Shown here in pieces: positions 45,502 to 60,940 of a DNA stretch of 64,000 nt (the stretch's first letter is position 1; every line of letters begins with the position of its first letter). Source of the DNA: Patescibacteria group bacterium (lineage in GTDB: Bacteria > Patescibacteriota > Microgenomatia > Levybacterales > UBA12049). The stretch is from contig DATKGX010000048.1 in assembly GCA_035510555.1 (NCBI GenBank), positions 12,148 through 76,147 on the forward strand, in the 5' to 3' direction. The notes beneath the pieces were generated by a model. It was not told the DNA's origin, searched no databases, and saw only the letters and a program-made list of their open reading frames with translations. The translations under genes were made by a program, and so were the position numbers.

Positions 45502-45575
45502 GCCGCCATCGTCTAGTGGCCTAGGACGTCAGATTCTCATTCTGAAGATCGCGGGTTCAACTCCCGCTGGCGGTA
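45502..45575 (+). tRNA. tRNA-Glu (anticodon CUC), 74 nt, CCA not encoded
   Basis: Hand fold. Acceptor GCCGCCA/TGGCGGT (G1-U72), D-stem GTCT/GGAC, anticodon stem TCAGA/TCTGA with loop TTCTCAT (C34 T35 C36), 5-nt variable loop, T-arm GCGGG-TTCAACT-CCCGC and discriminator A. Confidence 0.8.
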
Positions 45576-47089
45576 CTCAGTGAGAGCCCCTTATTGTCAA
45601 ACATTCGAATAGATTGATATATCGGGCTAATCTCGGTGTTGTAGCACCCCGGATACCCCCAAACCAGCCCAGAGGGAAATATTGAACACAGTAGGACTCG
45701 AATCTGGCTTAAGTTTGACATCTGATAAGTCGTTCCTAAATTGGCAAACTTTTCTTTCATAAATTTTACGATTGATTCAAGATTATATTTTGCCAACAAT
45801 GCATCATCTTTTGAAATTTGAATTGCCCTAACTTGGTCTTCAATTAACTTATTTTGCTCTTTAAATATTTCATCAGAAAAGACACCGGTTAAATTTTTCT
45901 GAATAAGTGATTGTCGAAGTTCAAATAACCTTTTTAATTCCTTATCCGCTTCATCTCGTCGTTTCTGAAGTTGTCCTACTCGTTGATAATAAGTTCTTCT
46001 TAAAAGAGCTATAAAGGCGTCTAGTCCTTCTCTTGTTGGAGTTATGCTTGATAAATACTGTATTGTTTCAGTTTGTACTTTATCAACGGAAATGGAAGGT
46101 GATTGACAACCCTTTTGACATCTATAATAAGCGTATCGGGCAAGCTTACCCTTACTCCATCCACCTGTTACCGGTTTCTTGCAAACTCCACAGATTAAAA
46201 TTCTTCTTAATGGAAATTCTTTATTGTCCATATTTCTTCTTGCAATGGGTACGTTGATATTAGTATTTCTTCCATCAATTGCCGCCTGAACCCTATAGAA
46301 AACCGCTTCCGATACCATCGGCAAATGTTGGCCTTTAATTCTTTCGGGATATTTGTCAGAAGATAATAATCCAATGTAATAACAACTTCTAAACATTCTA
46401 CTTAATGTTTGCGGTCTAATAATGTGTTCTTTACCCTTGTATCGATGTACTACTCCCCAACTATTTAAAAGGTTTGCCATTTCTCGCAAGGTTTTTGTTC
46501 CTGTCGCCATAAGTTCCCATGCCTTTTTTACTTTTTCCCAAGCCTCCGGATCTTTTACCGTATATCCGTTTTCATTTTTATAACCAAGCGGGGCGACTCC
46601 ACTTTTGAGACCCGTCAGAAATCTTGCCCGTAATCCGTTTTTTGTTCGTTCGCTTCTTACGTCATTATCCATTTGGGCAAAACTGGCAAGCATTGTTTCC
46701 ACGAATTTCTCAGTAGGGCTATTGCCTGTTGGTTCGGAAGCAGAAATAAGAGATATTTCGCACTCGACAAGTTTTCTTCTTATCGCTAGATAATCCGAAG
46801 TCTGTCTTGAAAGTCTATCTAATCTATAAATAATGAGCGCGTCAATATTTCGCTTATTCTTTTTGCAAAAATCCAACATCTCAATTAGAACCGGCCTCCC
46901 AGATATGGTTTTTGCAGAACGTCCTTCTTCCCTAAAAATCTTAATTATCCCCATCCATCTTCTTTCGGCTTCTTGTTTACATAGCTTCTCCTGTGTCCCC
47001 AAAGAAAAATTATCAACTTGCTCCTCCGTAGAAACTCGCAAATACATTATTGCCTGTTTTTGTCCAAAATTGTTTGTTATTGATTCCAT
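45557..47089 (-). CDS. Large serine recombinase (resolvase/invertase catalytic domain + recombinase domain + zinc ribbon), the island integrase
   Basis: 510 aa. N-terminal YLRVSTEEQ (catalytic Ser), ...IYRLDRLSR and zinc ribbon CGVCKKPVTGGW...YYRCQKGC. The last 9 codons lie inside the att core and the tRNA 3' end. Confidence 0.85.
   Translation of the reverse strand: MESITNNFGQKQAIMYLRVSTEEQVDNFSLGTQEKLCKQEAERRWMGIIKIFREEGRSAKTISGRPVLIEMLDFCKKNKRNIDALIIYRLDRLSRQTSDYLAIRRKLVECEISLISASEPTGNSPTEKFVETMLASFAQMDNDVRSERTKNGLRARFLTGLKSGVAPLGYKNENGYTVKDPEAWEKVKKAWELMATGTKTLREMANLLNSWGVVHRYKGKEHIIRPQTLSRMFRSCYYIGLLSSDKYPERIKGQHLPMVSEAVFYRVQAAIDGRNTNINVPIARRNMDNKEFPLRRILICGVCKKPVTGGWSKGKLARYAYYRCQKGCQSPSISVDKVQTETIQYLSSITPTREGLDAFIALLRRTYYQRVGQLQKRRDEADKELKRLFELRQSLIQKNLTGVFSDEIFKEQNKLIEDQVRAIQISKDDALLAKYNLESIVKFMKEKFANLGTTYQMSNLSQIRVLLCSIFPSGLVWGYPGCYNTEISPIYQSIRMFDNKGLSLSTASGS
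45567..45585. repeat. attL core: 19-bp direct repeat CTGGCGGTACTCAGTGAGA (covers the last 9 nt of the tRNA plus 10 nt downstream)
   Basis: Identical 19-mer at 60065-60083. Confidence 0.75.
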
Positions 47090-47092
47090 AAT

Positions 47093-47422
47093 CTACCCTC
47101 CGTTTAAAATTTCTTTTAAAGTCATCCCTTTGAACGTTTCTCTTTCATATTCATCAAGCCAACCGTCAATTAAGAATTCAAATTCCGTGACCATAATCTC
47201 TACTTGCTCGCTTGATAAAGCCTTGCCAACCTCTCCAAGAATTCCTTTTACCTGTACTACTTTTATTTCTTCGCTATGTTTTGGAAATATGGAATTTAGA
47301 GCATTTTCTATTGAAGTTTGGGGGGTAAGTTGGTTAGGCACATTGGGGTTTATTGATGTGGAACCTACCCTAGAAACGGTTTCTATTGAAGGAAAAAGTG
47401 ATAAAGTTAAAGCTTCTTGCAT
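47093..47422 (-). CDS. Small hypothetical protein (109 aa) co-transcribed upstream of the integrase, a candidate recombination directionality factor
   Basis: Acidic protein with no TM. Its stop is 3 nt from the integrase start. Confidence 0.5.
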   Translation of the reverse strand: MQEALTLSLFPSIETVSRVGSTSINPNVPNQLTPQTSIENALNSIFPKHSEEIKVVQVKGILGEVGKALSSEQVEIMVTEFEFLIDGWLDEYERETFKGMTLKEILNGG

Positions 47423-47433
47423 GTTAGTAAAAC

Positions 47434-47449
47434 TATCTCATTTGAGATA
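47434..47449. promoter_or_regulatory. Perfect inverted repeat TATCTCA-TT-TGAGATA (candidate operator) 12 nt upstream of the start of the integrase operon
   Basis: The half-site ACTATCTCA also occurs at 47461-47479 (other strand, abutting a TTGACA) and in the XRE gene promoter at about 59650. Confidence 0.45.
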
Positions 47450-47670
47450 ATTGTATATCCCGAACGAGATAGTTGTCAAGGGGTTATAGTATTCTTTTAA
47501 GTCACTTTTAGGCATGAAAATGAGCAGTCTTTTAATTTCCTCTAAGCATTGTTTAAAAGGGCAGCTTTCAGTTCCTCTCAGTGCTTGGAGGAAATTAAAA
47601 ACTATTCTTGAATAGATAAATCTATGCGTAATTTGATTTACAAGTAGACATATTCTATAATTCAGGCCTT

Positions 47671-48081
47671 ATGGGAGTAGAAGGCGGCAGTCAAGGATAC
47701 GGAGAAGAAGATGGTGGTGGAGATAATAGTCCAACAGCAACACACTATTTCCTAGAAATTGTTCAGGAGGTAGTTGCTTCTCTGGATTCTGACACAAAAT
47801 GGGATCAAGGTGTACATGAAGGAAATGCGCTGATTGCTGCGTATGGCTTGGTCAGAACTGTTATGCCTAGCGAATTACCTCAATTCGGGAGCGCGCTTAC
47901 GGACTTATCAACAAAACATCCAGAATCTCTCCTAGTGGTAACCGGAGCATATAAATTAATCAGGGAGGCATATTCTGTTGAGCAAGGACTTAGTTCGCGA
48001 GAAGTCAGGAGATTGTTAGGCTTACCTACCAAAGGAAGAATCTTTCCTACTCAAGCTGATAAATCAAATTCAACGAGATAA
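47671..48081 (+). CDS. Hypothetical protein (136 aa), Gly/Asp-rich N-terminus
   Basis: ORF preceded by TTGATT-N17-TATAAT with 9 nt between the -10 and the ATG (leaderless-type). Confidence 0.55.
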   Translation: MGVEGGSQGYGEEDGGGDNSPTATHYFLEIVQEVVASLDSDTKWDQGVHEGNALIAAYGLVRTVMPSELPQFGSALTDLSTKHPESLLVVTGAYKLIREAYSVEQGLSSREVRRLLGLPTKGRIFPTQADKSNSTR

Positions 48082-48095
48082 GTTTTATAGACCCA

Positions 48096-48124
48096 TTGAC
48101 TTCACTTAGCCTCAGTGCTACACT
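48096..48124 (+). promoter_or_regulatory. Promoter TTGACT-N17-TACACT upstream of the ATPase gene
   Basis: The spacer contains the TAGCCTCA motif (48107-48114). A 40-nt leader with hairpin GCCCTTTACGAGAGGGC (48147-48163) sequesters an SD-like GAGAGGG. Confidence 0.35.
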
Positions 48125-48164
48125 CTAGGCCACTTAGTAAACTCCTGCCCTTTACGAGAGGGCT

Positions 48165-50987
48165 ATGAATAATAGTGACTATCAGCAGGAGCTAGCATTA
48201 ATTCATCAGTTACAAACTCATACGTTTTCCGTAGGGCATGCCTATCTCCTCATTCTCTTTGGTCTTCCATTACCAATTCACTTAAAACTTGCTATCTACC
48301 ATTTCCTTACATCTCTACCGCTTCCGCAACTGTCTCCTATGCAAACAACCGTCCTCATCCTGGTCGGCCCAATCCTTTTCCTTGTATTCATGTATTTCTT
48401 TGTTAAGCTCGTAATTACTATCGTAAGAACGCTTATCCCTTTTGTTTTAACTAGATTTAAGAAGACAAAAGAAGAGAAGATATTCTTAGAGTTAACGTTC
48501 CCTTCAGATACAAGTAAGTCTGCGTATGCCACGGAGCAACTATATAAAACGATGCATACGGTAGCCGGAAGAAACAAAGGCTTTTTTTCTGTCAGGAAAA
48601 CATTTTCTTTGGAAATTGTCTCAAGCCGAAATGACGGAATTAGATATATCATTGGTGTTCCACCAGCTGATGCAGATGTTATGCGTCGAACCTTGATATC
48701 ATATCTTCCCGGTCTTTCTATCCGAGAAATTCCGGATTATCTACAAAGCATGCTGGTTGTTGAAGAAAATGAAGATGCTAAGCAAGCAACAGAGAAATCA
48801 CTTGGTTTTGTACAATTTACTCTCTCCGATGACTTTGTCTTACCTTTAGAGAACCAAAAGGTGCTCGGAAAACACGATTCCATCGCATTTCTAGCCGGCA
48901 ACATGACTAAGCTTGAAAAAGGAGAGCTTGTCGCTTTCCAGATTGTCACAAGCCCTACGGTAAGTAGCAAAGTGAGGGAACACATGCTGCGTGCGAAAAA
49001 CGCTATCTATCAAGGAAAGCCATTATCTCCGGTTTTGTTTAAAAAAAGTGCTTTACCGCTTCCCCCTGCCCTCATCCTTATCCTAGGCCCTGTTGTTTGG
49101 CTTACGGTTTCGTTTGTAAAACTTTTACTTGCCATGCCTCACCTGATCCTTGATCCTAAGGGGCCACACGCAAAATATTTTTTTGATTCAAGTTCAAAAA
49201 GTCAGCTGCAAGCTATTCTTAATCCTTATGAAATGGAACTTTCAACGGTTGTCAAAGGAAAACTCTCAGAACAGTTGTTTGAAACATCAATCAGGCTACT
49301 TATTATGACAAATACCGAGGAAGAATCTGATGCCAGACAAACCGGCCTTGTCTCCTCATTTAGTCAATTTACAAGCCAGTACCAATCATTAGTACAACAA
49401 GAAATGACTCCACTCCCATTTTTAGCTAATCAAATATTTAAGAAACGCTTCACAGATTTTCAAAAGCGTAATCTATCCAATGACAACTTAATCCTTTCTT
49501 CATCTGAAATTTCCGACCTATACCATTTCCCTAATATGGATATTACAAAAATTGAGGGGCTGGTTAAAAGTAAGAGCAGTGAGCTACCAGCACCCAGGTC
49601 CATAAAAAGAGATGATGGCGATCTTGATGTCATTGTCGGTAAGAATACCTATGGAGGAGAGGAAACAGCAGTTGGGCTAAGAAAGAGGGATCGATATCAA
49701 CATACATACATCGTCGGTAAAACGGGTATGGGAAAATCTACCATTATCGAGGGGATGGCATTACAGGATATTCAAAGCGGAAAAGGGATCTGTGTTATTG
49801 ATCCGCATGGAGACATGGTTGAGCATTTATTAACCTTAATTCCCAAAGATAGACAAAAGGATGTTGTCTTTGTTAATCCATTTGATAAAGAGTTTCCTAC
49901 AGGGCTTAATATTTTAAATCCCGGTACAAATTACGAAGATCTTGAAGAAGAACACCGAAGAATTGCCCAAACTGTGATGTCAATATTTATGAAAATAACG
50001 CCGGAAAGACATTGGGGCCAACGTATGGAACATATTTTAAGAAATGCGATTCTGACAACTCTCCTAATACAAGCAGGCACTACGAATACACCCTACATTT
50101 CCCTTTATACAATCCAAAAGCTTTTAACAGATGATAAGTATCGAAAATCTGTTACGGGAACTCTTTCCGATCCTATTTTAAAGCAGTTCTGGGAAAAAGA
50201 ATTTATGTTGTTTAGAAAAGGTCAGCAGGGGGATATGGTTGCGCCCTTAACAAATAAAATCGGAGAATTTATTACCGATCCACTCTCGCGATTCATATTA
50301 CTGCAGAAAAATAGCACCATCAATATTTCAGAAATTATGGATAATAGTAAAATCTTGCTTGTTAACCTTTCTAAGGGAAATTTAGGAGAGGAAAGAAGCG
50401 CCTTTTTTGGAACAATAATTACCTCTCTTATTCAACTTGCTACCTATCAAAGAGCACAGACTGAGGAAAAGAAAAGGCGTGATTTTTTCGTTTACATTGA
50501 TGAATTTCAAAACTTTGCAACGCCTCATTTTACCGAGCTGTTTTCAGAAGCCAGAAAATATCATGTATATTTTACCCCTTCTCACCAAAACATTGCCCAG
50601 ATTGATGATCCAAAAGTGTCAAAAGTAATTAAAGGCAATAGCGGAAACTTCATTGCTCTTAAAGGAAGCTCTGATGATGAAGAGGCTATGCTACCCATTT
50701 TCTCCCCGGAAGTAGAGAAAGGACAAATCGTCAATCTTGCTCCTTTTCATTTCTTTATGAAAGTAACCAATGATGAAAGTGAAGACGCCTTTACCGGTGT
50801 TACAATACCGGTTGAAAGTAGCGGAAGTAAAGAAACAAAGGAGGGTATTATTAAACAATCAAGACTGCATTACGCAACCAAACGGGAAGATGTTGAAAAG
50901 CAATTAGAACAGCTACTTAAAGTCGCTCCAAAGGTTCAAAAACAAGTGCTTAAAAATACAAGGATTAAAAAGAAACGATTAGCATAA
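48165..50987 (+). CDS. Membrane-anchored P-loop ATPase of the FtsK/HerA/TraD-VirD4 superfamily, a candidate conjugative coupling protein
   Basis: 940 aa. N-terminal about 100 aa with 2-3 TM helices. Walker A GKTGMGKST followed by VIDPHGDM. Walker B FFVYIDEFQNF. Confidence 0.5.
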   Translation: MNNSDYQQELALIHQLQTHTFSVGHAYLLILFGLPLPIHLKLAIYHFLTSLPLPQLSPMQTTVLILVGPILFLVFMYFFVKLVITIVRTLIPFVLTRFKKTKEEKIFLELTFPSDTSKSAYATEQLYKTMHTVAGRNKGFFSVRKTFSLEIVSSRNDGIRYIIGVPPADADVMRRTLISYLPGLSIREIPDYLQSMLVVEENEDAKQATEKSLGFVQFTLSDDFVLPLENQKVLGKHDSIAFLAGNMTKLEKGELVAFQIVTSPTVSSKVREHMLRAKNAIYQGKPLSPVLFKKSALPLPPALILILGPVVWLTVSFVKLLLAMPHLILDPKGPHAKYFFDSSSKSQLQAILNPYEMELSTVVKGKLSEQLFETSIRLLIMTNTEEESDARQTGLVSSFSQFTSQYQSLVQQEMTPLPFLANQIFKKRFTDFQKRNLSNDNLILSSSEISDLYHFPNMDITKIEGLVKSKSSELPAPRSIKRDDGDLDVIVGKNTYGGEETAVGLRKRDRYQHTYIVGKTGMGKSTIIEGMALQDIQSGKGICVIDPHGDMVEHLLTLIPKDRQKDVVFVNPFDKEFPTGLNILNPGTNYEDLEEEHRRIAQTVMSIFMKITPERHWGQRMEHILRNAILTTLLIQAGTTNTPYISLYTIQKLLTDDKYRKSVTGTLSDPILKQFWEKEFMLFRKGQQGDMVAPLTNKIGEFITDPLSRFILLQKNSTINISEIMDNSKILLVNLSKGNLGEERSAFFGTIITSLIQLATYQRAQTEEKKRRDFFVYIDEFQNFATPHFTELFSEARKYHVYFTPSHQNIAQIDDPKVSKVIKGNSGNFIALKGSSDDEEAMLPIFSPEVEKGQIVNLAPFHFFMKVTNDESEDAFTGVTIPVESSGSKETKEGIIKQSRLHYATKREDVEKQLEQLLKVAPKVQKQVLKNTRIKKKRLA

Positions 50988-51015
50988 TTGTCCTCGATGT
51001 TGAGGACAATATTTT
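50988..51015 (+). terminator. Intrinsic terminator hairpin TTGTCCTC-gatgtt-GAGGACAA followed by TATTTT
   Basis: 8-bp perfect stem and a U-rich tail directly after the ATPase stop codon. Confidence 0.6.
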
Positions 51016-51127
51016 AGGCAATTTGAGCATAAATTAAAGATAAATTGTGACACCTACCCTTACCAAATACGGAGTATATTATACGGTTGGGTATGGCATA
51101 AATACTAAACTTACAAAAAATAACTTA

Positions 51128-51922
51128 ATGACACAACTAAACCTAACAAACAAACAACAAGAAATATTAACACTAATCCCTAGATTTAGATTCTTAGACA
51201 GAACCCATATCCAAACATTCTTAAAACATAAAGACAAGAAACGAATCAACAGCTGGTTAAAAAACTTAACAGAAAAAGAATACATACAAAGAATATATGA
51301 CAATCATATTGTGGGAAAGAATAGAAGAGCTGCTATCTTTTCTTTAAATAACAACGGAGTAAGATTTGTAAAAGCTTTAGGAATATATGACAGATCTTTT
51401 ATTCATAAACTGTATTGGGACAAAGACAGGTCTGATGCGTTTATTGAGCGCTGTCTATTTATTGCCACAATCTGTTGTGAGCTTGAAAAGAAAGAAAGCA
51501 ATATGCTGCATTACGAATACGCAACTGAAAGCGATTTCTGTGATCCAACTAACCCCTTTCATTTTTTAAAAGTTTCTAAATTACCAATCGATTTATACTT
51601 TAAAAAAAGAAAGGGAAGATTAACAAAGCATTTTCTACTGACATTATTTGAGCAAACTCTTCCGCGTTACAGACTACGAAAAAGGATTAGGGATTATCTA
51701 GAATTTTACTATAGTAATGACTGGAAGAATCTTACAAATACTAAATTTCCCACGCTATTATTTGTGTTTCAAACAAAAGAGCGCATGATTTATGCAAAGA
51801 GGTATATCAAAACGCTGTTTGATGATGATAGCCCTGATGATTTATCAATCAATCTCGCGGTAGCTAGCGACGTACAAACCGAAGGTGGCGTTACTGGAGA
51901 GATTTGGGAAGAGGTTGAATAA
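51128..51922 (+). CDS. Replication-relaxation (Replic_Relax, PF13814-like) family protein candidate
   Basis: ORF track starts at 51047. MTQLNLTNKQQEILTLIPRFRFLDRTHIQTFL matches the winged-helix N-terminus of replication-relaxation proteins from Gram-positive plasmids/ICEs. Confidence 0.45.
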   Translation: MTQLNLTNKQQEILTLIPRFRFLDRTHIQTFLKHKDKKRINSWLKNLTEKEYIQRIYDNHIVGKNRRAAIFSLNNNGVRFVKALGIYDRSFIHKLYWDKDRSDAFIERCLFIATICCELEKKESNMLHYEYATESDFCDPTNPFHFLKVSKLPIDLYFKKRKGRLTKHFLLTLFEQTLPRYRLRKRIRDYLEFYYSNDWKNLTNTKFPTLLFVFQTKERMIYAKRYIKTLFDDDSPDDLSINLAVASDVQTEGGVTGEIWEEVE

Positions 51923-51923
51923 A

Positions 51924-51957
51924 AATCCTACCGCTTCGGTTAGAAAGCGGTAGGATT
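51924..51957. terminator. Bidirectional terminator hairpin (13-bp perfect stem AATCCTACCGCTT / AAGCGGTAGGATT, loop cggttaga) between convergent genes
   Basis: Lies between the 51922 stop (+) and the 51964 stop (-). Confidence 0.65.
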
Positions 51958-51963
51958 AAAGCC

Positions 51964-52272
51964 CTACTCTTGTGGTTCGTGTAGCTTTTTAATTTCTGAA
52001 AGCCTGATAGGCTTAAAATACATGTCCCTTTCAATACTTAAATCCATCGGACCCTTAAGGTTTTGCAGTTCGGAAAGACTAAAATATCCTAACTCTGGAT
52101 AGTCTCCTGCTACGTAACCGAAAAAAGAATCTTTTCCGTCAAATTCTATGCCGTACCATTTCCAGCTTGTCCAAACAGCAAAGAATTTACAAACAACCAT
52201 CGGATCTTTCTCGTTTTCTTGAGAATAGAGTGCCGGCAATGCTTTTCTTAGTTCTTCTGTTATTAGTTTCAT
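51964..52272 (-). CDS. DUF2958-like protein (small protein common on conjugative plasmids)
   Basis: 102 aa. ...ALPALYSQENEKDPMVVCKFF...WKWYGIEFDG...FGYV.G...ELGYFSLSEL. Has a strong SD (AGAGGGGGTGA) 5 nt upstream, unlike its neighbours. Confidence 0.45.
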   Translation of the reverse strand: MKLITEELRKALPALYSQENEKDPMVVCKFFAVWTSWKWYGIEFDGKDSFFGYVAGDYPELGYFSLSELQNLKGPMDLSIERDMYFKPIRLSEIKKLHEPQE

Positions 52273-52304
52273 ATTTCACCCCCTCTCTTTTTAGAATTTG
52301 TTTT

Positions 52305-52400
52305 TAGGAAGCAAACCTGCTTCCTATACCAGAGACGAAATATGCGGGGTGAAGATTACAAGAGCGAAGCAAAGACTTCGTTTATATACTCTTGTAATCT
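52305..52400. repeat. Cluster of inverted repeats: a candidate oriT or structured RNA
   Basis: IR1 TAGGAAGCA-aacc-TGCTTCCTA (52305-52326). IR2 has a 12-bp stem AGATTACAAGAG (52353-52364) / CTCTTGTAATCT (52389-52400) enclosing the nested hairpin CGAAG-caaaga-CTTCG (52365-52380). Confidence 0.4.
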
Positions 52401-52436
52401 GAGGGGTGCAACCCTTAGAAACACTAAATGTAAAAC

Positions 52437-52466
52437 TTGAAACTAAATTTATTGTTAAACTATAAT
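52437..52466 (+). promoter_or_regulatory. Promoter TTGAAA-N18-TATAAT, 6 nt upstream of the kinase ATG (leaderless)
   Basis: TATAAT at 52461-52466, then gagtaa, then ATG at 52473. Confidence 0.5.
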
Positions 52467-52472
52467 GAGTAA

Positions 52473-52982
52473 ATGAATAAACCAATATTATATATTTTAA
52501 GCGGTATGTCTTTTGCTGGAAAATCAGTATTAGCGAGAGAAATTGCTAAAACAAAATCTATTCCATATATTGATCCCGATGAGGTTTCTCGAGAAAGAGG
52601 ACTTGGACTAAATGGTGAATTTATTCCAGAAGAGATTTGGAAAGACATACATAAGGAAGCGGAACAGAGAGCCATAGAAATTTTAAAACAAGGAAAAAGT
52701 TTGGTTTATGATACAACTGCATTAATTAAAAAGGATCGTGATTATTTAAGAAATTTAGCTAATGAAAATGGAGCTGAACCATTAGTTATAATTGTAAACA
52801 TTTCTAGAGAAGACGCTTTTAAGAGATGGCAGGAAAATAATACAACCAATGAAAGATATGCAGTTCATATTAATGATTTTAATATGTGCGCTGATGGTTT
52901 TCAATTTCCCAAAGATGACGAGAAATTCATAGTCTATCAAGCTGGTCAAAATATTACTGAATGGCTAAGGAAAATAAATTAA
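52473..52982 (+). CDS. Small P-loop kinase, chloramphenicol-phosphotransferase-like (CPT/AAA_33 family)
   Basis: 169 aa. P-loop ILSGMSFAGKSVL resembles the CPT P-loop ILNGGSSAGKS. Leaderless. Confidence 0.45.
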   Translation: MNKPILYILSGMSFAGKSVLAREIAKTKSIPYIDPDEVSRERGLGLNGEFIPEEIWKDIHKEAEQRAIEILKQGKSLVYDTTALIKKDRDYLRNLANENGAEPLVIIVNISREDAFKRWQENNTTNERYAVHINDFNMCADGFQFPKDDEKFIVYQAGQNITEWLRKIN

Positions 52983-53081
52983 ATCTACGAAGCGGAAACC
53001 ATTGCGCCCTTCAGAAGAAGTAGTACTTGATCAATCGTGAAAGTACCAAAAGAGGGGCAAGACCCCTAAGAAGCTTTCTGA

Positions 53082-53087
53082 TATAAT
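53082..53087 (+). promoter_or_regulatory. Extended -10 (cTGaTATAAT), 6 nt upstream of ATG 53094 (leaderless)
   Basis: ctgatataat-caactc-ATG. Same arrangement before the other cassettes. Confidence 0.5.
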
Positions 53088-53093
53088 CAACTC

Positions 53094-53807
53094 ATGGAAG
53101 AAGAAATAAAAATCCCCCTTGGAGATAATAAGTTTGCTTATGGCACTCTAAGAGGAAACCTTGATCAACCCCTTATAATATTTGCTCACGGATTTACAGG
53201 AGATAAGAATCATCACATTTTTTTCAATGGTGCTAGGTTTTTTGAGAAACATGGAATTTCTTCATTTAGATTTAATTTCTATGGCGAGGAAGAAGATTCT
53301 AGGCAGTTAAATGATTGTAGCATCTCAAATCATGTCTCCGACTTAGATACAATAGTGTCATATTTTAGAGATAAAGCCAAAAACATTATTGTTGTTGGAC
53401 ATAGTTTTAGCGGAATAATAATACTTTCATCAAAAAAACAGCAGTTTGATAAAGCTATACTTTGGGATCCATCTTCTGATACTAAGAGCTGGTTAGTTAA
53501 AGACGCTAAATATATAAAAGAGCTTGGTCTATATTATTTCGATGACTGGGGAGTGTCATATACAATTGGAAAGCAGATGTATCAGGAATGCGTCGATTTT
53601 AACCCCGATCACCTATCCTCAAAATTTACAAAACCACTCAAAATAATTGTCGCAGGCAATGGAATACTTAAAGACGGTGGCCGAAAATATTTTGAACAAG
53701 CAAATCAGCCTAAAGAATTTGCTGTTATTGAGGGTGCGAGCCACAACTTTAATGAAGATGGGGTGGAAGAAAAGTTATTTCAAGAAACCCTTAATTGGAT
53801 AAAATAA
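53094..53807 (+). CDS. Alpha/beta hydrolase fold protein
   Basis: 237 aa. HGFTGDKNHH followed by the nucleophile elbow VVGHSFSG. Confidence 0.7.
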   Translation: MEEEIKIPLGDNKFAYGTLRGNLDQPLIIFAHGFTGDKNHHIFFNGARFFEKHGISSFRFNFYGEEEDSRQLNDCSISNHVSDLDTIVSYFRDKAKNIIVVGHSFSGIIILSSKKQQFDKAILWDPSSDTKSWLVKDAKYIKELGLYYFDDWGVSYTIGKQMYQECVDFNPDHLSSKFTKPLKIIVAGNGILKDGGRKYFEQANQPKEFAVIEGASHNFNEDGVEEKLFQETLNWIK

Positions 53808-53848
53808 GTTCTAATATCGTCTATCCCTCGGAGCAAATTAGCCTCAAA
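53808..53848 (+). repeat. Cassette-junction element J1 (GTTCTAATATCGTCTATCCCTCGGAGCAAATTAGCCTCAAA)
   Basis: Begins 1 nt after the stop codon. Related copies at 54534-54577, 55105-55121 (partial), 56001-56040 and 56573-56620. TAGCCTCAAAA alone occurs at 57142-57152. Confidence 0.6.
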
Positions 53849-53893
53849 TAGCGTACATTTTACCTGCCCATACTCTACTCAACCATTATCCTA

Positions 53894-53908
53894 TTGACAA
53901 TTTGTCAA
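53894..53908. promoter_or_regulatory. Perfect palindrome TTGACAA-T-TTGTCAA overlapping the -35 hexamer of the 53939 gene (candidate operator)
   Basis: 7-1-7 inverted repeat. TTGACA-N17-GATACT promoter, then about 10 nt to the ATG. Confidence 0.45.
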
Positions 53909-53938
53909 TGATTAAGGATACTATAGACAGAGAAAAAT

Positions 53939-54532
53939 ATGACAGAACCAATAGACGCATCAAGGGGAGTTCCTGCTCCAGTAGAACCAACGGGTGAACA
54001 ACCTCAAATTCCTCAAGAGGATAGATATATATTTAATCCAGCAGAGTTTGACGAAAAAGCCGCAGCTGAGCTAAGAAGACATGAGGAATGGCTTAGGACT
54101 GAGGGCTGGAGAGAAGACAGAGCCAGGGAAACTCTTGATAGACAAAGACAAGATTTGGCTGAGAATAGAACTTGGTGTGAGGCTTATTCTGGGAAAGTGA
54201 AAAGAGAATGGGGCTGGGGGGAAGTGAATGAAAATGCTGGCTACCCATCTTGGGCTCACATAATTACAGATATTGAAGACCAAGGAGTACCTCTAACAGC
54301 TGTGGAGATTGATGCTGCTATAGACTATCCGCTATGGCATGTACCTGTATCTCTCGGAGAAAACAGGCCACTAACTCAAGAGCAACTAGACAGGTTAGCA
54401 ACTAAAAAGAACATGGTACGAGCAAAAACTTTTGAAAAAGACATTGCAGATGCCCAGTTGCGTATGGGTGTAGAACCTCAAGTGGTACAGCACGCTGTAG
54501 GTTTAAATCAAGCTGCTGGCCGAGTTGTATAA
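53939..54532 (+). CDS. Hypothetical protein (197 aa), acidic and Arg/Glu-rich
   Basis: GC-richer codon usage than its neighbours. No motif recognised. Confidence 0.55.
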   Translation: MTEPIDASRGVPAPVEPTGEQPQIPQEDRYIFNPAEFDEKAAAELRRHEEWLRTEGWREDRARETLDRQRQDLAENRTWCEAYSGKVKREWGWGEVNENAGYPSWAHIITDIEDQGVPLTAVEIDAAIDYPLWHVPVSLGENRPLTQEQLDRLATKKNMVRAKTFEKDIADAQLRMGVEPQVVQHAVGLNQAAGRVV

Positions 54533-54533
54533 C

Positions 54534-54577
54534 TAGCCTCTAACATCCTCTATCCCTCGGAGTTACGTAGCCTCAAT
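54534..54577 (+). repeat. Cassette-junction element J2
   Basis: ctagccTCTAACATCCTCTATCCCTCGGAGttacgTAGCCTCAatt, followed by tgTGaTATAAT at 54583-54588. Confidence 0.55.
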
Positions 54578-54582
54578 TGTGA

Positions 54583-54588
54583 TATAAT
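54583..54588 (+). promoter_or_regulatory. Extended -10, 9 nt upstream of ATG 54598
   Basis: tgtgatataat-cccctaaat-ATG. Confidence 0.45.
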
Positions 54589-54597
54589 CCCCTAAAT

Positions 54598-55116
54598 ATG
54601 CCAGAAGGAGATAATTCACAAAGACAAGAAGTAGCAAGAAATGCAGAATTCGCCGGAATAATGGCAGAGGCGATAAAAAGACATGTTCAATATCCAGATA
54701 AATCAGCAACTGAACATGAATATCTGCTAGGATCTCTCGAAATTCCTGTAACTTTTTACTATCAAGGTGCTTCAAGATGTGCAATAAAAATAGACTGGAA
54801 TGACGATTGGGATGTAACTTATCACGTTGATCCTGAAGGTGTAATTAAAACAGGCTTTATTGACCCAAGAGAAACAACCGGTGACCCTTGCACATTCTGG
54901 GAAAATGATCCAGCGGAAATTGAAGACCACAAGCGTTTTGGGCGTAGATTTCTTCCTGCGCCTGCTGCCAATTCAATAGAGAAAAGTTTAATTAGTCAAT
55001 TAGCACAACATCCAATGCAAGGACAAAAAATCCTGTTGGATATTGCGGAGCATGCAGCGTGGAAAAATTATGAGATATGCCCCCAATTCCTCTCTGAACC
55101 AGAGGGAGCAAATTAG
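54598..55116 (+). CDS. Hypothetical protein (172 aa)
   Basis: Leaderless ORF. Its 3' end contains the GGAGCAAATTAGCCTCA junction core. Confidence 0.55.
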   Translation: MPEGDNSQRQEVARNAEFAGIMAEAIKRHVQYPDKSATEHEYLLGSLEIPVTFYYQGASRCAIKIDWNDDWDVTYHVDPEGVIKTGFIDPRETTGDPCTFWENDPAEIEDHKRFGRRFLPAPAANSIEKSLISQLAQHPMQGQKILLDIAEHAAWKNYEICPQFLSEPEGAN

Positions 55117-55136
55117 CCTCAGAAAGCAGCTTCTGC

Positions 55137-55142
55137 TATAAT
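55137..55142 (+). promoter_or_regulatory. Extended -10 (cTGcTATAAT), 7 nt upstream of ATG 55150
   Basis: TAGCCT lies 17 nt upstream at the -35 position. Confidence 0.45.
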
Positions 55143-55149
55143 CAGTCCA

Positions 55150-55590
55150 ATGACTTATTCAACTCACAAATTAAAACAAGAAGATCTTAGTAGTTTTGTT
55201 GATTTATGGAATCAAGATCCTGAAGCTTTAGCAACAAGTAAACGTGTGATGACATTAGATTTAGCACAAGATGGGTTTAAAGAGAATTATTTTGATTACT
55301 ATTTTGGTCTGTACGAAAATAATAAACTAATTGGCTTTATTCTTATAAAGAATATCGATGATAATATTTGGTTAAAACATATGTTAATTGATAATGGCGA
55401 AAGAGGGAAAGGGCTTGGAAAAATGTTTTTATCGGAAGTTCTCAAAATTGTTAACAATAGAATATTAACGGAAGTTGTTGAGGACAATGATAGGGCAAAA
55501 AAGTTTTATATAGATAATGGTTTTAGGGAAATTCGTTTTGATCAAGAAAGTAGGGATTATATTTTGGAATATATCCCATCACTGATATAA
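55150..55590 (+). CDS. GNAT family N-acetyltransferase
   Basis: 146 aa. Motif A ...IDNGERGKGLGKMFLSEVL. Confidence 0.75.
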   Translation: MTYSTHKLKQEDLSSFVDLWNQDPEALATSKRVMTLDLAQDGFKENYFDYYFGLYENNKLIGFILIKNIDDNIWLKHMLIDNGERGKGLGKMFLSEVLKIVNNRILTEVVEDNDRAKKFYIDNGFREIRFDQESRDYILEYIPSLI

Positions 55591-55591
55591 T
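55586..55591 (+). promoter_or_regulatory. Extended -10 (cTGaTATAAT) inside the 3' end of the GNAT gene, 6 nt upstream of ATG 55598
   Basis: ctgatataat-caactt-ATG. Confidence 0.45.
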
Positions 55592-55597
55592 CAACTT

Positions 55598-55999
55598 ATG
55601 AATAAAAAAGTATTAGAAATGTTTGCCAAAAGCACATTTAGCGTCTCTGAACAGAAATACATTTACGCAAAAGTTAAAAGTGTACCTACGTTATCTATTC
55701 ATTTTTTTGTTTCTCAAGACAAGGATGAAATAACTGTAGTAACTGAAGAGAATAACATTTCCTCCTTAGATTTAATCGAAAAGAATGATAATCTCTGGAG
55801 ATTAGTATCTCTTAATTTAGAAACGTCTTTTATGGCAGGGACATTAGCGATAATTAATTCTGCTTGTGCAGAAAAAGGATTGAATAACTTAATTATTTCA
55901 ACTTATTCGAAGGACTACTTAATCATAAAAGATTTACAAGCAAATCAAATAAGAGAAGTTTTGACCACTCTTGGATTTAATGAAAAATCCCTAAAATAG
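55598..55999 (+). CDS. ACT-domain-like small protein (ACT_7-like)
   Basis: 133 aa. ...KYIYAKVKSVP...FFVSQDKDEITVVTEE...STYSKDYLIIK pattern. Confidence 0.45.
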   Translation: MNKKVLEMFAKSTFSVSEQKYIYAKVKSVPTLSIHFFVSQDKDEITVVTEENNISSLDLIEKNDNLWRLVSLNLETSFMAGTLAIINSACAEKGLNNLIISTYSKDYLIIKDLQANQIREVLTTLGFNEKSLK

Positions 56000-56000
56000 A

Positions 56001-56040
56001 TTCTAATGTCCTCTATTCATCGGAGCTGCATAGTCTCAAA
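56001..56040 (+). repeat. Cassette-junction element J5 (TTCTAATGTCCTCTATTCATCGGAGCTGCATAGTCTCAAA)
   Basis: Starts 1 nt after the stop. Followed by cTGaTATAAT at 56051-56056 and ATG at 56063. Confidence 0.6.
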
Positions 56041-56050
56041 ATATTTCTGA

Positions 56051-56056
56051 TATAAT
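56051..56056 (+). promoter_or_regulatory. Extended -10, 6 nt upstream of ATG 56063
   Basis: ctgatataat-ctacct-ATG. Confidence 0.45.
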
Positions 56057-56062
56057 CTACCT

Positions 56063-56569
56063 ATGGAAATTGTTGATGTTGTTGATAAAGATTTAAACAT
56101 CCTATGCCAAATTTCAAAACAAGAAGCCCACGAAAAAGGATTACTGCATAAATGTGTTATTGCTGAGGTTACCAACTCCAAAGGCGAAATGATGCTTATT
56201 AAACCATATAGTCATAAGCAAGATGCCGGACAATATGTTTCGCCTGTTGGGGGACATGTATCTGCAGGAGAATCAGACGAAGATGCCTTGAAAAGAGAAG
56301 TTATGGAAGAAATTGGAATGAAAGATTTTACATACAAGCTCAAGGGAAAAGGAATTTTTAACAGATTCGTTCTTAATCGTCATGAGAATCACTATTTCCT
56401 TCTGTATGAAATATTTACAGACGAAGCTCCTCAGCTAGGAGACGAAGCTGAAACATATAAGTGGTTTACTAAAGAAGAGCTAAAAAAAGAATTAAAGGAA
56501 AATACTAAGGATTTTGGTGACGCATATATCTTTATTCTTAACAATTTTTACCCTGAATTATTAAAATAG
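56063..56569 (+). CDS. NUDIX hydrolase
   Basis: 168 aa. Nudix box GGHVSAGESDEDALKREVMEEIGM (GX5EX7REUXEEXGU). Confidence 0.8.
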   Translation: MEIVDVVDKDLNILCQISKQEAHEKGLLHKCVIAEVTNSKGEMMLIKPYSHKQDAGQYVSPVGGHVSAGESDEDALKREVMEEIGMKDFTYKLKGKGIFNRFVLNRHENHYFLLYEIFTDEAPQLGDEAETYKWFTKEELKKELKENTKDFGDAYIFILNNFYPELLK

Positions 56570-56572
56570 CAA

Positions 56573-56620
56573 GTTCTAATGTCCTCTATTCTTCGGAGCT
56601 CAATATTTTATCCTCAAAAA
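56573..56620 (+). repeat. Cassette-junction element J6 (GTTCTAATGTCCTCTATTCTTCGGAGCTC...ATCCTCAAAAA)
   Basis: Followed by tgTGaTATAAT at 56629-56634. The ORF-track start at 56579 is the ATG embedded in this repeat. Confidence 0.6.
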
Positions 56621-56641
56621 CCTTGTGATATAATCGAATTT

Positions 56642-57124
56642 ATGAATGAGAGATTTACTCCTCAAGAGCTTTATGATTTTATAGATAGAGCAGGCAAGGC
56701 AACCTATGCAGGAGGTGGAAAATATGAAGAGCATCCAGAGCGACCTGGATTTTTTGAATTAGTCTACGATAAAGAATTGCCTTGGTATTACAGGGATAGC
56801 TATGCAGGACATTCTAGGTCTGGAGGACAAGAGGTTGTTAGATTGAATGATGAATTAATTTGGTGGTCAGGATATGGTGGAGGCATGGTTGAAGGAAGAG
56901 AAGACATGTCCAATCAAACTTTTGATTTTCTTAAGAAGGCTCTATCCCAAGACGATGAAGGATTTAAATCTCTAAGAGGTCCTCATGAATTTGCGGATGG
57001 AGATTGGAAATATGCCTATACCCAAGATGGAGATATAACAGATTTTTATGGATATGAAGAGATTTCCTACAAAGGAGAAAAAGTGTTCTGGCACAGAGCG
57101 GTTGGCGGAATATTAAAGAAATAA
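56642..57124 (+). CDS. Hypothetical protein (about 160 aa)
   Basis: The start is re-placed at MNERFTPQ (56642), 7 nt downstream of the TATAAT. The 21-codon extension from 56579 lies inside the conserved junction repeat. Confidence 0.55.
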   Translation: MNERFTPQELYDFIDRAGKATYAGGGKYEEHPERPGFFELVYDKELPWYYRDSYAGHSRSGGQEVVRLNDELIWWSGYGGGMVEGREDMSNQTFDFLKKALSQDDEGFKSLRGPHEFADGDWKYAYTQDGDITDFYGYEEISYKGEKVFWHRAVGGILKK

Positions 57125-57168
57125 CGCCCATCCCACGAAAATAGCCTCAAAAACTAACTGCATAAAAA

Positions 57169-57531
57169 TTATTTTGAATTATACCATTGATGAAATTCTG
57201 TACATTTACCGTTTTCATCTAGGATCACTTTATAAATTCCATCTAATTCTGCCTTTTCCCCTGAAGATAATCTCGTAAAAGTTGCGTGCCAATGAGCAAT
57301 ACCAATGTTATTCTCTAAACTTAATATTTCGTAAGTTACTTTTATATCATCCTGATCTAAAACAGTTTGCCACTCTTGTAATAATTTCTCTTTAGTAGTT
57401 ATCAGGTCATCAAAAGGAGTTTCATACCATAAAAACTTTTCAGCAACCAAATCCAAAACTCCATTAGGATTTTTTGGCTCCCAAACATTTATAAGTTTTT
57501 TCAACCAATCTTCAAATTGTTCTTTTGTCAT
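57169..57531 (-). CDS. NTF2-like/SnoaL-like small protein
   Basis: 120 aa with an alpha+beta-cone-like pattern (W...W..H.AT...G). Last cargo gene, on the opposite strand. Confidence 0.4.
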   Translation of the reverse strand: MTKEQFEDWLKKLINVWEPKNPNGVLDLVAEKFLWYETPFDDLITTKEKLLQEWQTVLDQDDIKVTYEILSLENNIGIAHWHATFTRLSSGEKAELDGIYKVILDENGKCTEFHQWYNSK

Positions 57532-57741
57532 TAAAAATATTATATCAAATTACCCAGCCTTGGCGGCACAGATATTCAAATCTTCGCTAAGTAGTTATTT
57601 TTGCAGTTTACAAGAATTTTCTTCTACTTATATTTAAGTAAACATAGATGTAAGGAGCTTGATGTTAATTAAAATAATGGCGTTTATAGATTGTCTAAAC
57701 TATTAACCCAGTAAGGGGAAATCGAAAGAACTATTATTAAG

Positions 57742-58560
57742 TCACATTGCAACGTTAGTGTTTGATCCTACTTTATACACAAGAACTCTAGTGAAATTTT
57801 GTCCTGATGTGGGTCTTCTTTTTATGGGTTCGGGATTTCTTGGATCCGTCGTTTTCATGTAGTCTAGCGCACTTGCTTCTTTCCCTTCCGGCCAATCTCT
57901 GGCTTCGACAATCCCATATTTATCATTTTCTGCCCTATACCCAGTATAACTTCTAACTATATTCGTACCATCGCCCCATCTACCACCAACAGCCGGCATT
58001 AATTCTGCTTTTGTCTTATCAATCCCAAGCACATCATATGTTGACTGTATCGCTTCTTCCCTACCAACATAGTCATCCGGTATATCAACGAATACGCCAT
58101 AAGCTCCGTGTTTCTGGGTGTTTACTTCTGCTACCGCATCTAATAATGCGTCTTTAGCGTCTCTTGATTCTGGGTGTCTAGCAGCGCTAAGAGCTCTTCG
58201 TCTCTCTATCAATGTGCGCTCCGCTACAAGTAATTCTCTTGCGGCTTCAGTAACAGCAGGTATTCTTCCTAAAATCTCTTCAGCTTTAGCATCTTGTCCT
58301 AGTCTTTTTAATTCACTTGCCGCTCTATGATAGCTACTCTTAACCTCAGACGCTAGTTGCTGCTCTTCGGGATCTAGTTCCTCTGAATGAGCTTCTTGTA
58401 GTTCCGCATTCTCTGCTACTTCAGCAGATGGAACGGGCGAATATGCTCCTGCTGTTTCGGGATGTTGTTGCGGTTCAGCTGAAACGGGAGCTGCTTGTGC
58501 TTCCGCGGCTACTTGAGATGTTGCTCCGGCTGGCGGTTCTCCTCCGAATGGATTAGTCAT
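57742..58560 (-). CDS. Hypothetical protein, Ala/Glu/Pro-rich N-terminal half
   Basis: ORF track gives 57742..58596. Start re-placed at MTNPFGG (58560), which is 6 nt downstream of a CATAAT -10 (leaderless). Markedly GC-richer than its surroundings. Confidence 0.5.
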   Translation of the reverse strand: MTNPFGGEPPAGATSQVAAEAQAAPVSAEPQQHPETAGAYSPVPSAEVAENAELQEAHSEELDPEEQQLASEVKSSYHRAASELKRLGQDAKAEEILGRIPAVTEAARELLVAERTLIERRRALSAARHPESRDAKDALLDAVAEVNTQKHGAYGVFVDIPDDYVGREEAIQSTYDVLGIDKTKAELMPAVGGRWGDGTNIVRSYTGYRAENDKYGIVEARDWPEGKEASALDYMKTTDPRNPEPIKRRPTSGQNFTRVLVYKVGSNTNVAM

Positions 58561-58566
58561 AAGCTT

Positions 58567-58596
58567 ATTATGAATGAAATTTTTAGATATTGTCAA
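58567..58596 (-). promoter_or_regulatory. Promoter TTGACA-N18-CATAAT for the 58560 gene, flanked by the inverted repeat TTAGATAT/ATATCTAA
   Basis: -10 = rc(58567-58572) and -35 = rc(58591-58596). The AGCTATTGACAAT motif is shared with the TA-operon promoter. Confidence 0.45.
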
Positions 58597-58703
58597 TAGC
58601 TATATCTAAAATAATAAAGGAGCATTAATCCATTTGTAAAATCCATTGCCAATCAATAACCGCAGGCGTATAATTTTGCTAAAGAATAAATTAAATCATA
58701 TTT

Positions 58704-59522: not shown

Positions 59523-59688
59523 AAATGCGGGTCATGGACAAGAAACCCACACCCGCATTAGTGATTATATCGTAACCGATTCTAAAATACAAAGTCAAGT
59601 GAATAAAGTATTTTGACATAGAAAGTTGTAGTTGAAAATCCTCGTGAAACTATCTCAAATTTACTCTTCGTGTTATAATACACTCGAT

Positions 59689-59898
59689 ATGGATAGTCCT
59701 GAAAACAAGAAAACGCTTGGAGATAAATTCAGAATTGCCAGAGAGGAACAAAACCTTACGCAGTTACAGGTGGCAAAAAAAGCCGGCATTAGCGTTAATT
59801 ACTACGCAAGAGTTGAAAGAGGCGATCCAGATGCAAGGTGGAGCGTTATAAATAGTATTGCTAAGGCATTAGGAATAAACGTAAAACTTCCTATTTAA
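59689..59898 (+). CDS. XRE-family helix-turn-helix transcriptional regulator
   Basis: ORF track starts at 59632. The start is preferred at MDSPENKK (59689), 9 nt downstream of TATAAT 59674-59679. HTH LTQLQVAKKAGISVNYYARVERG. Confidence 0.7.
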   Translation: MDSPENKKTLGDKFRIAREEQNLTQLQVAKKAGISVNYYARVERGDPDARWSVINSIAKALGINVKLPI

Positions 59899-59930
59899 AA
59901 TAACTGTTAAAGTTCTTTCCCTTTAGTTAA

Positions 59931-60083
59931 TTTTTCTAGTATAATATGCTTCGGAGTAACCAGTGTCTTTTGATAAAAATATATCGTTTTCAGCTTCCTT
60001 TTGCCCTTGATACGAAAGCACAATTTTCTGTATCCAAGGCAGGAAGTGTTCAAAAGAAAATGCACTGGCGGTACTCAGTGAGA
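59931..60083. repeat. About 145-bp right-arm repeat, copy A (ends in the att core)
   Basis: About 75% identical to 60941-61085. The last roughly 45 bp (TATCCAAGGCAGGAAGTGTTCAAAAGAAAATGCACTGGCGGTAC) are near-identical. Confidence 0.6.
60065..60083. repeat. attR core: second copy of the 19-bp direct repeat CTGGCGGTACTCAGTGAGA
   Basis: Exact match to 45567-45585. Confidence 0.75.
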
Positions 60084-60838: not shown

Positions 60839-60940
60839 AAGTAAATATTACAGAATTATGTACAAATTGTCAATAGCTAAAAAAATGTTTAATGCGTAGG
60901 ACTTGAGTTGTGCAACAAAAATCTATCAGTTTATTTTCTT

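Follow-up and report, generated by a model that had tools for sequence, protein, structure and literature searches.

A likely integrative mobilisable element with its own coupling protein and a Replic_Relax protein at a tRNA-Glu gene of a Patescibacterium

The window analysed here is a 64,000-nucleotide stretch of a Patescibacteria genome, in which positions 48165-52400 carry genes for a membrane-anchored ATPase, a Replic_Relax-like protein and a DUF2958 protein. An earlier note, made from the letters alone, had flagged them as a small mobilisation-like module, and the open reading frames (ORFs), motifs and inverted repeats that it described are all present where it placed them. We consider it likely that these genes form the transfer backbone of an integrative mobilisable element (IME) of ~14.5 kb, inserted at the 3′ end of a tRNA-Glu gene in a Microgenomates-type Patescibacterium; the identity of the module and the reading of the island, taken jointly, carry the same good confidence. 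The logic of such an element is already known, with a recombinase, a MOBC-class relaxase, its own type IV coupling protein (T4CP) and a borrowed channel, and the family is a widespread, as yet undescribed one within Patescibacteria. The core of the element consists of the following features:

48165..50987, plus strand: VirD4/TrwB-type coupling protein of 940 aa, with an N-terminal membrane-embedded DUF8128 over approximately residues 1-480
50985..51105, plus strand: best candidate for the origin of transfer (oriT) and for Replic_Relax binding, with a 9-bp hairpin at 50987-51010, the box TTTGAGCATAAAT and an iteron block at 51040-51102
51128..51922, plus strand: Replic_Relax (MOBC-class) protein of 264 aa, a putative relaxase, with an N-terminal winged helix and a C-terminal alpha/beta domain
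51964..52272, minus strand: DUF2958 protein of 102 aa (Pfam 8.2e-16)
52293..52423, minus strand: conserved three-hairpin element with the single-stranded linker TCACCCCGC (covariance-model match 6.6e-27)

The 940-aa ATPase is a VirD4/TrwB-type coupling protein and not HerA. The motifs GKTGMGKST, VIDPHGDM and VYIDEF are all found in its translation, and hydrophobic helices at approximately residues 23-98 and 301-329 form an N-terminal membrane anchor. Its Pfam matches are TrwB_AAD_bind (PF10412; 1.4e-8, 34.5 bits against a cut-off of 20.5), DUF87 (1.3e-7, over the gathering score) and TraG-D_C (PF12696; 5e-5, 23.7 bits against a cut-off of 22), the last of which marks a C-terminal relaxosome-recognition region. 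For the homologue P0063, the TrwB_AAD_bind alignment covers profile positions 7-309 of 387. When a profile of 29 homologues was searched against the PDB, TrwB (1.4e-6) and DotL were the only relatives, and Foldseek with the AlphaFold model (pLDDT 77) gave TM-scores of 0.66-0.70 to TrwB over ~450 columns, with Cag-beta and HerA ranking below. Full-length VirB4 had the best Foldseek E-values, over >900 columns, but TM-scores of only 0.27-0.31. A HerA/FtsK identity, which the earlier note had named beside that of a coupling protein, was rejected because coupling-protein families win both by sequence (Pfam, NCBIfam, PDB profiles) and by fold (Foldseek).

Within the coupling proteins, the ATPase stands apart. 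The first NCBIfam match is the VirD4-like CD1115 model (2.7e-13) at 49.6 bits against an equivalog cut-off of 250, and the protein is not a member of the curated equivalogs TraD, CD1115 or CedD; since its best match is so far under the cut-off, we place it in a separate T4CP subfamily. An hhalign comparison with the pTEF1 counterpart, a single-sequence template, was weak. The anchor region belongs to DUF8128 (PF26449), which takes up the N-terminal ~480 residues, is far larger than usual for a T4CP and resembles no PDB entry in sequence. In the predicted model, the ATPase fold encloses a helical block (residues 593-712), a candidate for the all-alpha domain that T4CPs have inserted in their nucleotide-binding domain.

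The second protein is, by its sequence, a divergent Replic_Relax member at the family level. PF13814 is matched by all 36 of the aligned homologues at E ≤ 0.01 (best 1.6e-14, profile positions 1-177 of 191), and the protein matches PHROG 9381, ‘replication initiation by nicking’, at 4e-6. The helix-turn-helix (HTH) N-terminus that the earlier note had seen is present as a winged helix-turn-helix, and the predicted C-terminal domain has an alpha-beta-beta-beta-alpha-beta topology, for which no fold match was obtained. Across the family, K224 never varies and E175 hardly does. PF13814 is equated with the MOBC relaxase class (PMC5357655), of which pAD1 TraX is a studied member (PMC12857230), and has been placed in the PD-(D/E)XK superfamily (PMC3424549). 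The full ORF runs from a GTG at 51047 to 51922 on the plus strand (291 aa); however, the true start is probably the ATG at 51128 (M28), giving 264 aa, because ~110 of 120 homologues among the matches listed are 251-282 aa long. The GTG itself falls within a conserved non-coding element. A tblastn search of 72,556 plasmids with this protein found no match. The hidden Markov model searches proposed in the earlier note thus returned coupling-protein families rather than a non-conjugative ATPase for the first gene, and Replic_Relax similarity for the second.

The borders of the island are defined by the following features:

45502..45576, plus strand: tRNA-Glu(CUC), the integration target, whose 3′ end holds the left direct-repeat copy (ARAGORN; Rfam tRNA 63.2 bits)
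45557..47089, minus strand: large serine recombinase of 510 aa (Resolvase 9.8e-31, Recombinase, Zn_ribbon_recom)
45567..45585: attL, left copy of the perfect 19-nt direct repeat CTGGCGGTACTCAGTGAGA (repeat search)
59925..60064, minus strand: right end of the island, which in an excised circle would give the recombinase a different C-terminal tail of 45 aa
60065..60083: attR, right copy of CTGGCGGTACTCAGTGAGA (repeat search)

The island, ~14.5 kb at 45567-60083, is bounded by this perfect repeat at the tRNA-Glu 3′ end, and the tRNA was the sole match in an Rfam scan. It encodes, in order, the large serine recombinase, a small protein (p109), a 136-aa ORF, the T4CP, Replic_Relax, DUF2958, ~10 cargo genes and an Xre-type regulator. 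An integrase-linked island, as the earlier note had proposed, is therefore found in the form of a serine recombinase and att repeats at a tRNA target, and it combines these with a relaxase candidate and an oriT candidate. The island gene table holds no mating-pore genes, with no VirB4, VirB6 or pilin among them, and no type IV secretion system (T4SS) gene was found elsewhere in the window among the genes sampled. Because the island is without a T4SS, it is best read as an IME.

The last codons and the stop of the recombinase gene lie inside the tRNA gene, beyond attL. When the island ends are joined in silico as a circular junction, the recombinase ORF lengthens from 510 to 554 aa, with a predicted 45-aa tail of SAFSFEHFLPWIQKIV...YYTRKIN. 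The recombinase gene spans attL, and integration therefore exchanges its C-terminus. The predicted empty site reads ...CCCGCTGGCGGTACTCAGTGAGATAACGCTCAAAAA... and the predicted circle junction ...GAAAATGCACTGGCGGTACTCAGTGAGAGCCCCTTATTG... The right end is duplicated at 60928-61082 by a diverged copy, 77% identical, that retains the frame and stop of the recombinase tail. This speaks for the proposed crossover point and shows that an earlier insertion took place at the same site. A ParE/Phd toxin-antitoxin pair lies between the two right-end copies (59925-60083 and 60928-61082).

The same arrangement recurs in other genomes. A scan of one genome per species yielded 168 relatives of the ATPase, on contigs labelled with many Patescibacteria lineages plus a few bins with other labels; 80 loci (given here by L numbers) were fetched, 77 of them with the ATPase. 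Replic_Relax accompanies the ATPase in 56 of these 77, and the recurrent order is recombinase, p109, T4CP, Replic_Relax and then a small gene on the opposite strand. Leading-region type genes co-occurring with the pair are DUF2958, DUF3768, ArdC-N and RadC. In L097, a 95%-identical backbone adjoins tRNA-Arg and carries different cargo.

Targeting of tRNA genes is usually linked with tyrosine integrases. Here, the gene for the serine recombinase abuts a tRNA gene in ~20 related loci with varying isoacceptor (Glu, Gln, Thr, Leu, His, Phe, Ser, Ala, Pro, Asn, Arg and Trp). These loci include L007, L012, L013, L015, L035, L037, L043, L044 and L050-L052 as well as L055, L063, L066, L076, L088, L091 and L097.

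Seven loci (L025, L040, L045, L049, L050, L052 and L076) have a full Gram-positive-type T4SS cluster beside the T4CP-Replic_Relax pair, with genes for a pilin, a pilin-TrbL fusion (VirB6-like), PrgI, a VirB4-type ATPase and an M23 peptidase. The family therefore also includes conjugative versions.

Between the T4CP and Replic_Relax genes, the spacer contains the motif block CCTAC..GGAGTAGG.GGGGTAGGCA, which in the window reads CCTAC..GGAGTA..GGTTGGGTATGGCA (the iteron block at 51040-51102). An nhmmer profile of this block gave 49 matches in 48 loci, one per Replic_Relax gene, and none elsewhere in 1.5 Mb; apart from those at contig ends, every match lies 5′ of a Replic_Relax gene, and the block stays with Replic_Relax even in loci where that gene is distant from the ATPase. 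It is made up of 5-mers, two direct and one inverted, whose sequences vary together from subfamily to subfamily, and RNAalifold gave no consensus fold for it, so we treat it as a protein-binding sequence. About 39 of the 49 blocks are preceded, at a distance of 25-38 nt, by a hairpin of 6-15 bp whose stems covary. On the basis of this architecture, 50985-51105 appears to be a better oriT candidate than the region at 52300-52400 favored by the earlier note, and the oriT call moves there because the iteron/hairpin element tracks the Replic_Relax gene in 48 loci. The iteron block could also be merely an autoregulatory operator.

The closest layout that we found is TraW-oriT2-TraX of pAD1/pTEF1 from Enterococcus faecalis, where a T4CP, a non-coding gap and a Replic_Relax protein of ~260 aa follow one another on the same strand, as they do in the island. 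pTEF1, typed MOBC, has this T4CP-gap-Replic_Relax order, and its relaxase, like that of the island, has an N-terminal winged helix. The pAD1 oriT contains an inverted repeat and short direct repeats that the relaxase binds away from nic (PMC12857230), and the island candidate is built alike. The systems differ in that the sequence similarity between their Replic_Relax proteins is marginal, the gap is ~700 nt in the plasmids and ~140 nt in the island, the island T4CP carries the N-terminal DUF8128, and the island element is integrated and without a T4SS. The mobilisable CloDF13, with MobB and MobC, has its own coupling-type protein and a MOBC relaxase and borrows only the channel. It is listed as the MOBC prototype (PMC12857230). 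Set side by side by description, it shares this logic with the island; however, it is a plasmid in a diderm host and not an integrated island.

Among integrated elements, the streptococcal IMEs (Coluzzi et al. 2017, PMC5357655) are likewise small islands that lack a T4SS and encode a recombinase, a relaxase and in some cases a T4CP of their own, and one class of them uses Rel_PF13814/MobC (PMC5357655). The island differs from these by its host phylum, its DUF8128-bearing T4CP, its conserved cis elements, and a large serine recombinase that targets a tRNA gene with the crossover inside its own 3′ end. In Patescibacteria, a 2025 survey (Quinonero-Coronel et al., PMC12102498) counted 58 MOBC relaxases and 5,713 VirD4-like T4CPs; 39 relaxase genes had a t4cp nearby, MOBC was the commonest class and the T4CPs were mostly far from virB4. 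The protein families are the same as in the island. However, the survey did not delimit elements, and here Replic_Relax is present in 56 of 77 species-level ATPase loci. The earlier note had called such elements little documented in these bacteria, which is true of the elements themselves and not of their T4CPs and MOBC relaxases, which that survey had already counted.

From these parts, transfer may be pictured as follows. The large serine recombinase would excise the island at the 19-nt repeats to give a circle in which the longer recombinase ORF is restored. The winged helix of Replic_Relax would bind the iteron block just 5′ of its own gene, and the protein would nick a single strand in the vicinity, probably at the covarying hairpin or beside it, as TraX of pAD1 does. 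With DUF8128 anchoring it in the membrane, the VirD4-type T4CP would then hand the nucleoprotein to a T4SS channel that the island does not encode, supplied by a resident Patescibacteria T4SS or by a co-resident conjugative relative. A helper channel of this kind is plausible because VirB4 occurs in 2,417 of 3,035 Patescibacteria assemblies (PMC12102498). In the recipient, DUF2958 would serve as an early establishment function, and the recombinase would integrate the element at a tRNA gene.

Several observations weigh against this account. The window protein itself scores below the PF13814 cut-off (9.7e-4, about 20 bits, 19.7-20.1, against 25.3). The aspartate of the ‘PD’ motif, D155, is replaced by H, N, S or Q in many Replic_Relax members, and the clade of the window protein lacks two acidic residues that others retain. 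An hhalign comparison with the pTEF1 TraX homologue, a single-sequence template, gave E 0.004 and a probability of 8%, and covers just the winged helix and first helix (the N-terminal third). An exact search with the 19-nt att core in the JGI metagenomes, a collection without the source samples, found no attB or attP junction, its 3 chance matches all lying in an unrelated coding region, and no database protein has the circular-form recombinase tail when the reconstructed 554-aa recombinase is the query. In the cultivated Saccharimonadia strain ML1, the T4CP is not essential and may be exapted (PMC12102498). Separately, the single match with 99% coverage to the 554-aa recombinase (P0281) was rejected as its tail is unrelated read-through.

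The variable catalytic residues would fit an island with no mobilisation device at all, in which Replic_Relax is a replication initiator or transcription regulator and the T4CP has been exapted to feed an essential T4SS that serves an epibiotic lifestyle. Original annotations tied the Replic_Relax family to plasmid replication and predicted it to be an HTH regulator (PMC3424549), its PHROG matches read ‘replication initiation’, the iteron block occupies the position expected of an autoregulatory operator, and exaptation of t4cp was raised by the 2025 survey (PMC12102498). We nevertheless regard this explanation as unlikely. The pair rides islands at different tRNA genes with variable cargo, co-occurs with DUF2958, DUF3768, ArdC-N and RadC, lies within full T4SS clusters in seven loci and has a layout equal to that of the pAD1/pTEF1 relaxosome module.

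The missing junction and circular forms, in the JGI metagenome and protein database searches alike, could instead mean that the island is what decay has left of a conjugative element in the same family, with its T4SS genes lost and transfer no longer possible. T4SS-bearing relatives do exist, and the second, diverged right end (60928-61082) is evidence of remnants building up at the site. However, every backbone ORF is intact, and a relative with a 95%-identical ATPase stands in another genomic context. In addition, the T4SS-less architecture and its conserved cis elements recur in many distant genomes at different tRNAs, which argues for continued selection and movement, and decay is thus a very improbable explanation compared with that of a mobilisable element.

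DUF2958 had been described in the earlier note as typical of conjugative plasmids, and we found its homologues on 113 plasmids, 68 of them predicted to be conjugative; on pCHQ1, DUF2958 adjoins ArdC-like and ParB genes. The protein is likely to have an establishment or leading-region type function. Upstream of its gene, the IR-rich region consists of perfect 12-nt arms (52353-52364 and 52389-52400) around a nested CGAAG/CTTCG hairpin and of perfect 9-nt arms (52305-52313 and 52318-52326). A 200-nt stretch folds at -29.2 kcal/mol (z = -5.2); shuffled versions give -14.5 ± 2.8, and none of 200 matches the native value. The structure called by the earlier note is thus real, and it is part of a three-hairpin element, with stems of 8-14 bp, fixed hairpin spacing and an invariant linker TCACCCCGC, that we found as 17 copies in 16 loci. 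Compensatory double changes were seen in 16 of 22 pairs, and 93.8% of cells are paired, a level that none of 500 shuffles reached (79.2% for the shuffles). A wobble-pair analysis of the folding strand had too few informative positions.

The oriT role that the earlier note gave this region does not hold up as well. A hairpin followed by a nic site is a known oriT architecture. The three-hairpin element, with a hairpin and then the invariant single-stranded linker, resembles it; it is strongly conserved and covarying, and no sigma-70-like promoter is predicted at the element on the DUF2958 strand. Still, the region at 52300-52400 is neither confined to one copy per element nor linked to the relaxase gene. 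The element always lies 30-45 nt 5′ of the start codon of a small gene that runs against the T4CP gene. Twelve of these genes encode DUF2958, 1 is ArdC-N-like and the rest encode unknown proteins. L051 has the element twice, before its DUF2958 and ArdC-N-like genes. It is present in 16 of ~60 Replic_Relax-bearing loci and absent from ~44. Because of this linkage to DUF2958-type genes, the two L051 copies and the absence from most Replic_Relax loci, we think it quite unlikely that 52300-52400 is the oriT of the module. The linker can pair with the Shine-Dalgarno (SD) sequence; the pairing spans 8 bp in the window, and in L009 and L016 the two partners have changed correspondingly, a pattern that fits a leader. 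A leader or a signal active in single-stranded DNA (ssDNA) for DUF2958-type establishment genes is therefore more likely than an oriT.

The element can be compared with the Frpo/ssi leading-region promoters (PMC11541004), which are also folded elements directly 5′ of small genes opposite to transfer genes. By eye, it has no -35/-10 boxes in Frpo geometry and it is too short for a full duplex promoter. The DUF3768-type hairpin of related loci does have such boxes in Frpo geometry. This long imperfect hairpin of ~120 nt lies 5′ of DUF3768 genes in L027, L036, L041, L045, L050, L052, L053, L058, L060, L076, L077, L078 and L083. On the complement of its 5′ arm, a -35 box (TTGAGG/TTGACA) is found at a fixed position near the loop and a -10 box (TATAAT/TACAAT/TATAAG) in an internal loop near the base. 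Several of these loci have no divergent gene for such a promoter to serve.

We tentatively propose, as a possibility rather than an expectation, that the islands and their T4SS-bearing relatives are the missing conjugative relaxosome of Patescibacteria, which docks on the widespread, essential chromosomal T4SS and turns it into a conjugation pore. DUF8128 could then be the adaptor by which the T4CP plugs into a foreign channel, an idea suggested by the long, poorly superposed Foldseek alignments of this domain to VirB4. As a corollary that shares this tentative standing, the folded elements 5′ of the DUF2958 and DUF3768 genes would be ssDNA-active signals for early expression in the recipient. 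The MOBC-type relaxase of the islands may be mostly invisible to standard relaxase profiles, and the Replic_Relax family looks under-counted in Patescibacteria, since the survey lists only 58 MOBC relaxases against 5,713 T4CPs (PMC12102498). If the module is active, conjugative gene flow in these reduced, host-dependent bacteria would be commoner than thought and thousands of orphan T4CP genes would be explained. The conserved cis elements provide concrete DNA substrates for tests in the few cultivable Saccharibacteria.

The remaining features of the island are as follows:

47093..47422, minus strand: p109, a conserved small protein in the same orientation as the recombinase (BLAST cluster in 10 loci)
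47431..47480, minus strand: promoter of the p109-recombinase operon with a palindromic operator, TTGACA-18-TACAAT on the minus strand (promoter scan 11/12)
47530..47600: IR-B, a 22-nt inverted repeat with the conserved loop AAAAGGGCAGCTTTCAGTTCCTCTC (fold z = -3.45)
47671..48081, plus strand: 136-aa ORF in a variable slot, outside the conserved backbone, with its own promoter at 47633-47661
48096..48124, plus strand: T4CP promoter, TTGACT-17-TACACT with TG in front (promoter scan; homologous TGATATAGT-type boxes in relatives)
51924..51957: 13-bp hairpin, a terminator, between the convergent Replic_Relax and DUF2958 genes (scores as a terminator on the minus strand)
59632..59898, plus strand: Xre-type HTH regulator at the island right end, a conserved backbone gene (HTH_3 1.1e-11; cluster in 31 loci)

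Between the recombinase and the T4CP, where it always lies in the 10 loci, p109 has no Pfam or PHROG match and is possibly an accessory or directionality factor. The p109-recombinase promoter region contains a 19-nt inverted repeat in a layout that recurs in 11 related loci. This repeat, IR-A (47431-47474), was rejected as an oriT because it overlaps the best promoter of the region and is read as an operator. IR-B is also found in L088, L091 and, by eye only, L044, and is a candidate regulatory site or minor oriT candidate. The variable slot from IR-B to the T4CP promoter (47601-48095) is empty in L088 and L091, and in L097 a Proteasome-family gene occupies it. The hairpin between the Replic_Relax and DUF2958 genes was also rejected as an oriT, because relatives have a spacer of just 8-40 nt or none at all and because of its terminator score.

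Translation signals differ among the backbone genes. The earlier note had assigned SD-like sequences to both the ATPase and DUF2958 genes; the latter has a strong SD (GAGGGGGTGA), but the GAGAGGG of the ATPase gene is just 2 nt from the ATG and hence doubtful. The different origin that had been read from SD usage is weakly founded. The Replic_Relax gene has no SD and a leader rich in A/C and poor in G. The window leader (51103-51127) has matching leaders in ~50 loci, of 30-100 nt, A/C-rich, nearly G-free and 3′ of the G-rich iteron block, likewise for Replic_Relax genes without an SD.

The backbone is followed by an AAA_33/zeta-toxin-like kinase gene (52473-52982) with a strong promoter at 52437-52466 and its ATG 7 nt past the -10 box. 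Since L007 and L037 have a comparable kinase after the backbone, it may be a semi-conserved accessory gene. Window positions 52004-53076 and L037 positions 7271-8345 are 92% identical in nucleotide sequence over DUF2958, the three-hairpin element and the kinase gene, and the ATPase genes of the two are only ~67% identical (44% in protein). This difference in identity indicates a mosaic exchange at the backbone/cargo border. Further into the cargo (53066-56650), genes are separated by 4 copies of a 38-nt repeat (53810, 54539, 56002 and 56575), each with a TGATATAAT-type promoter after it and then a near-leaderless ATG, in a cassette-like array. Outside the island, ~25 genes at 324-40681 form one long same-strand run; of the 7 sampled from it, 2 have no Pfam match and 5 encode large polytopic membrane proteins (YfhO, PMT_2, PTPS_related).

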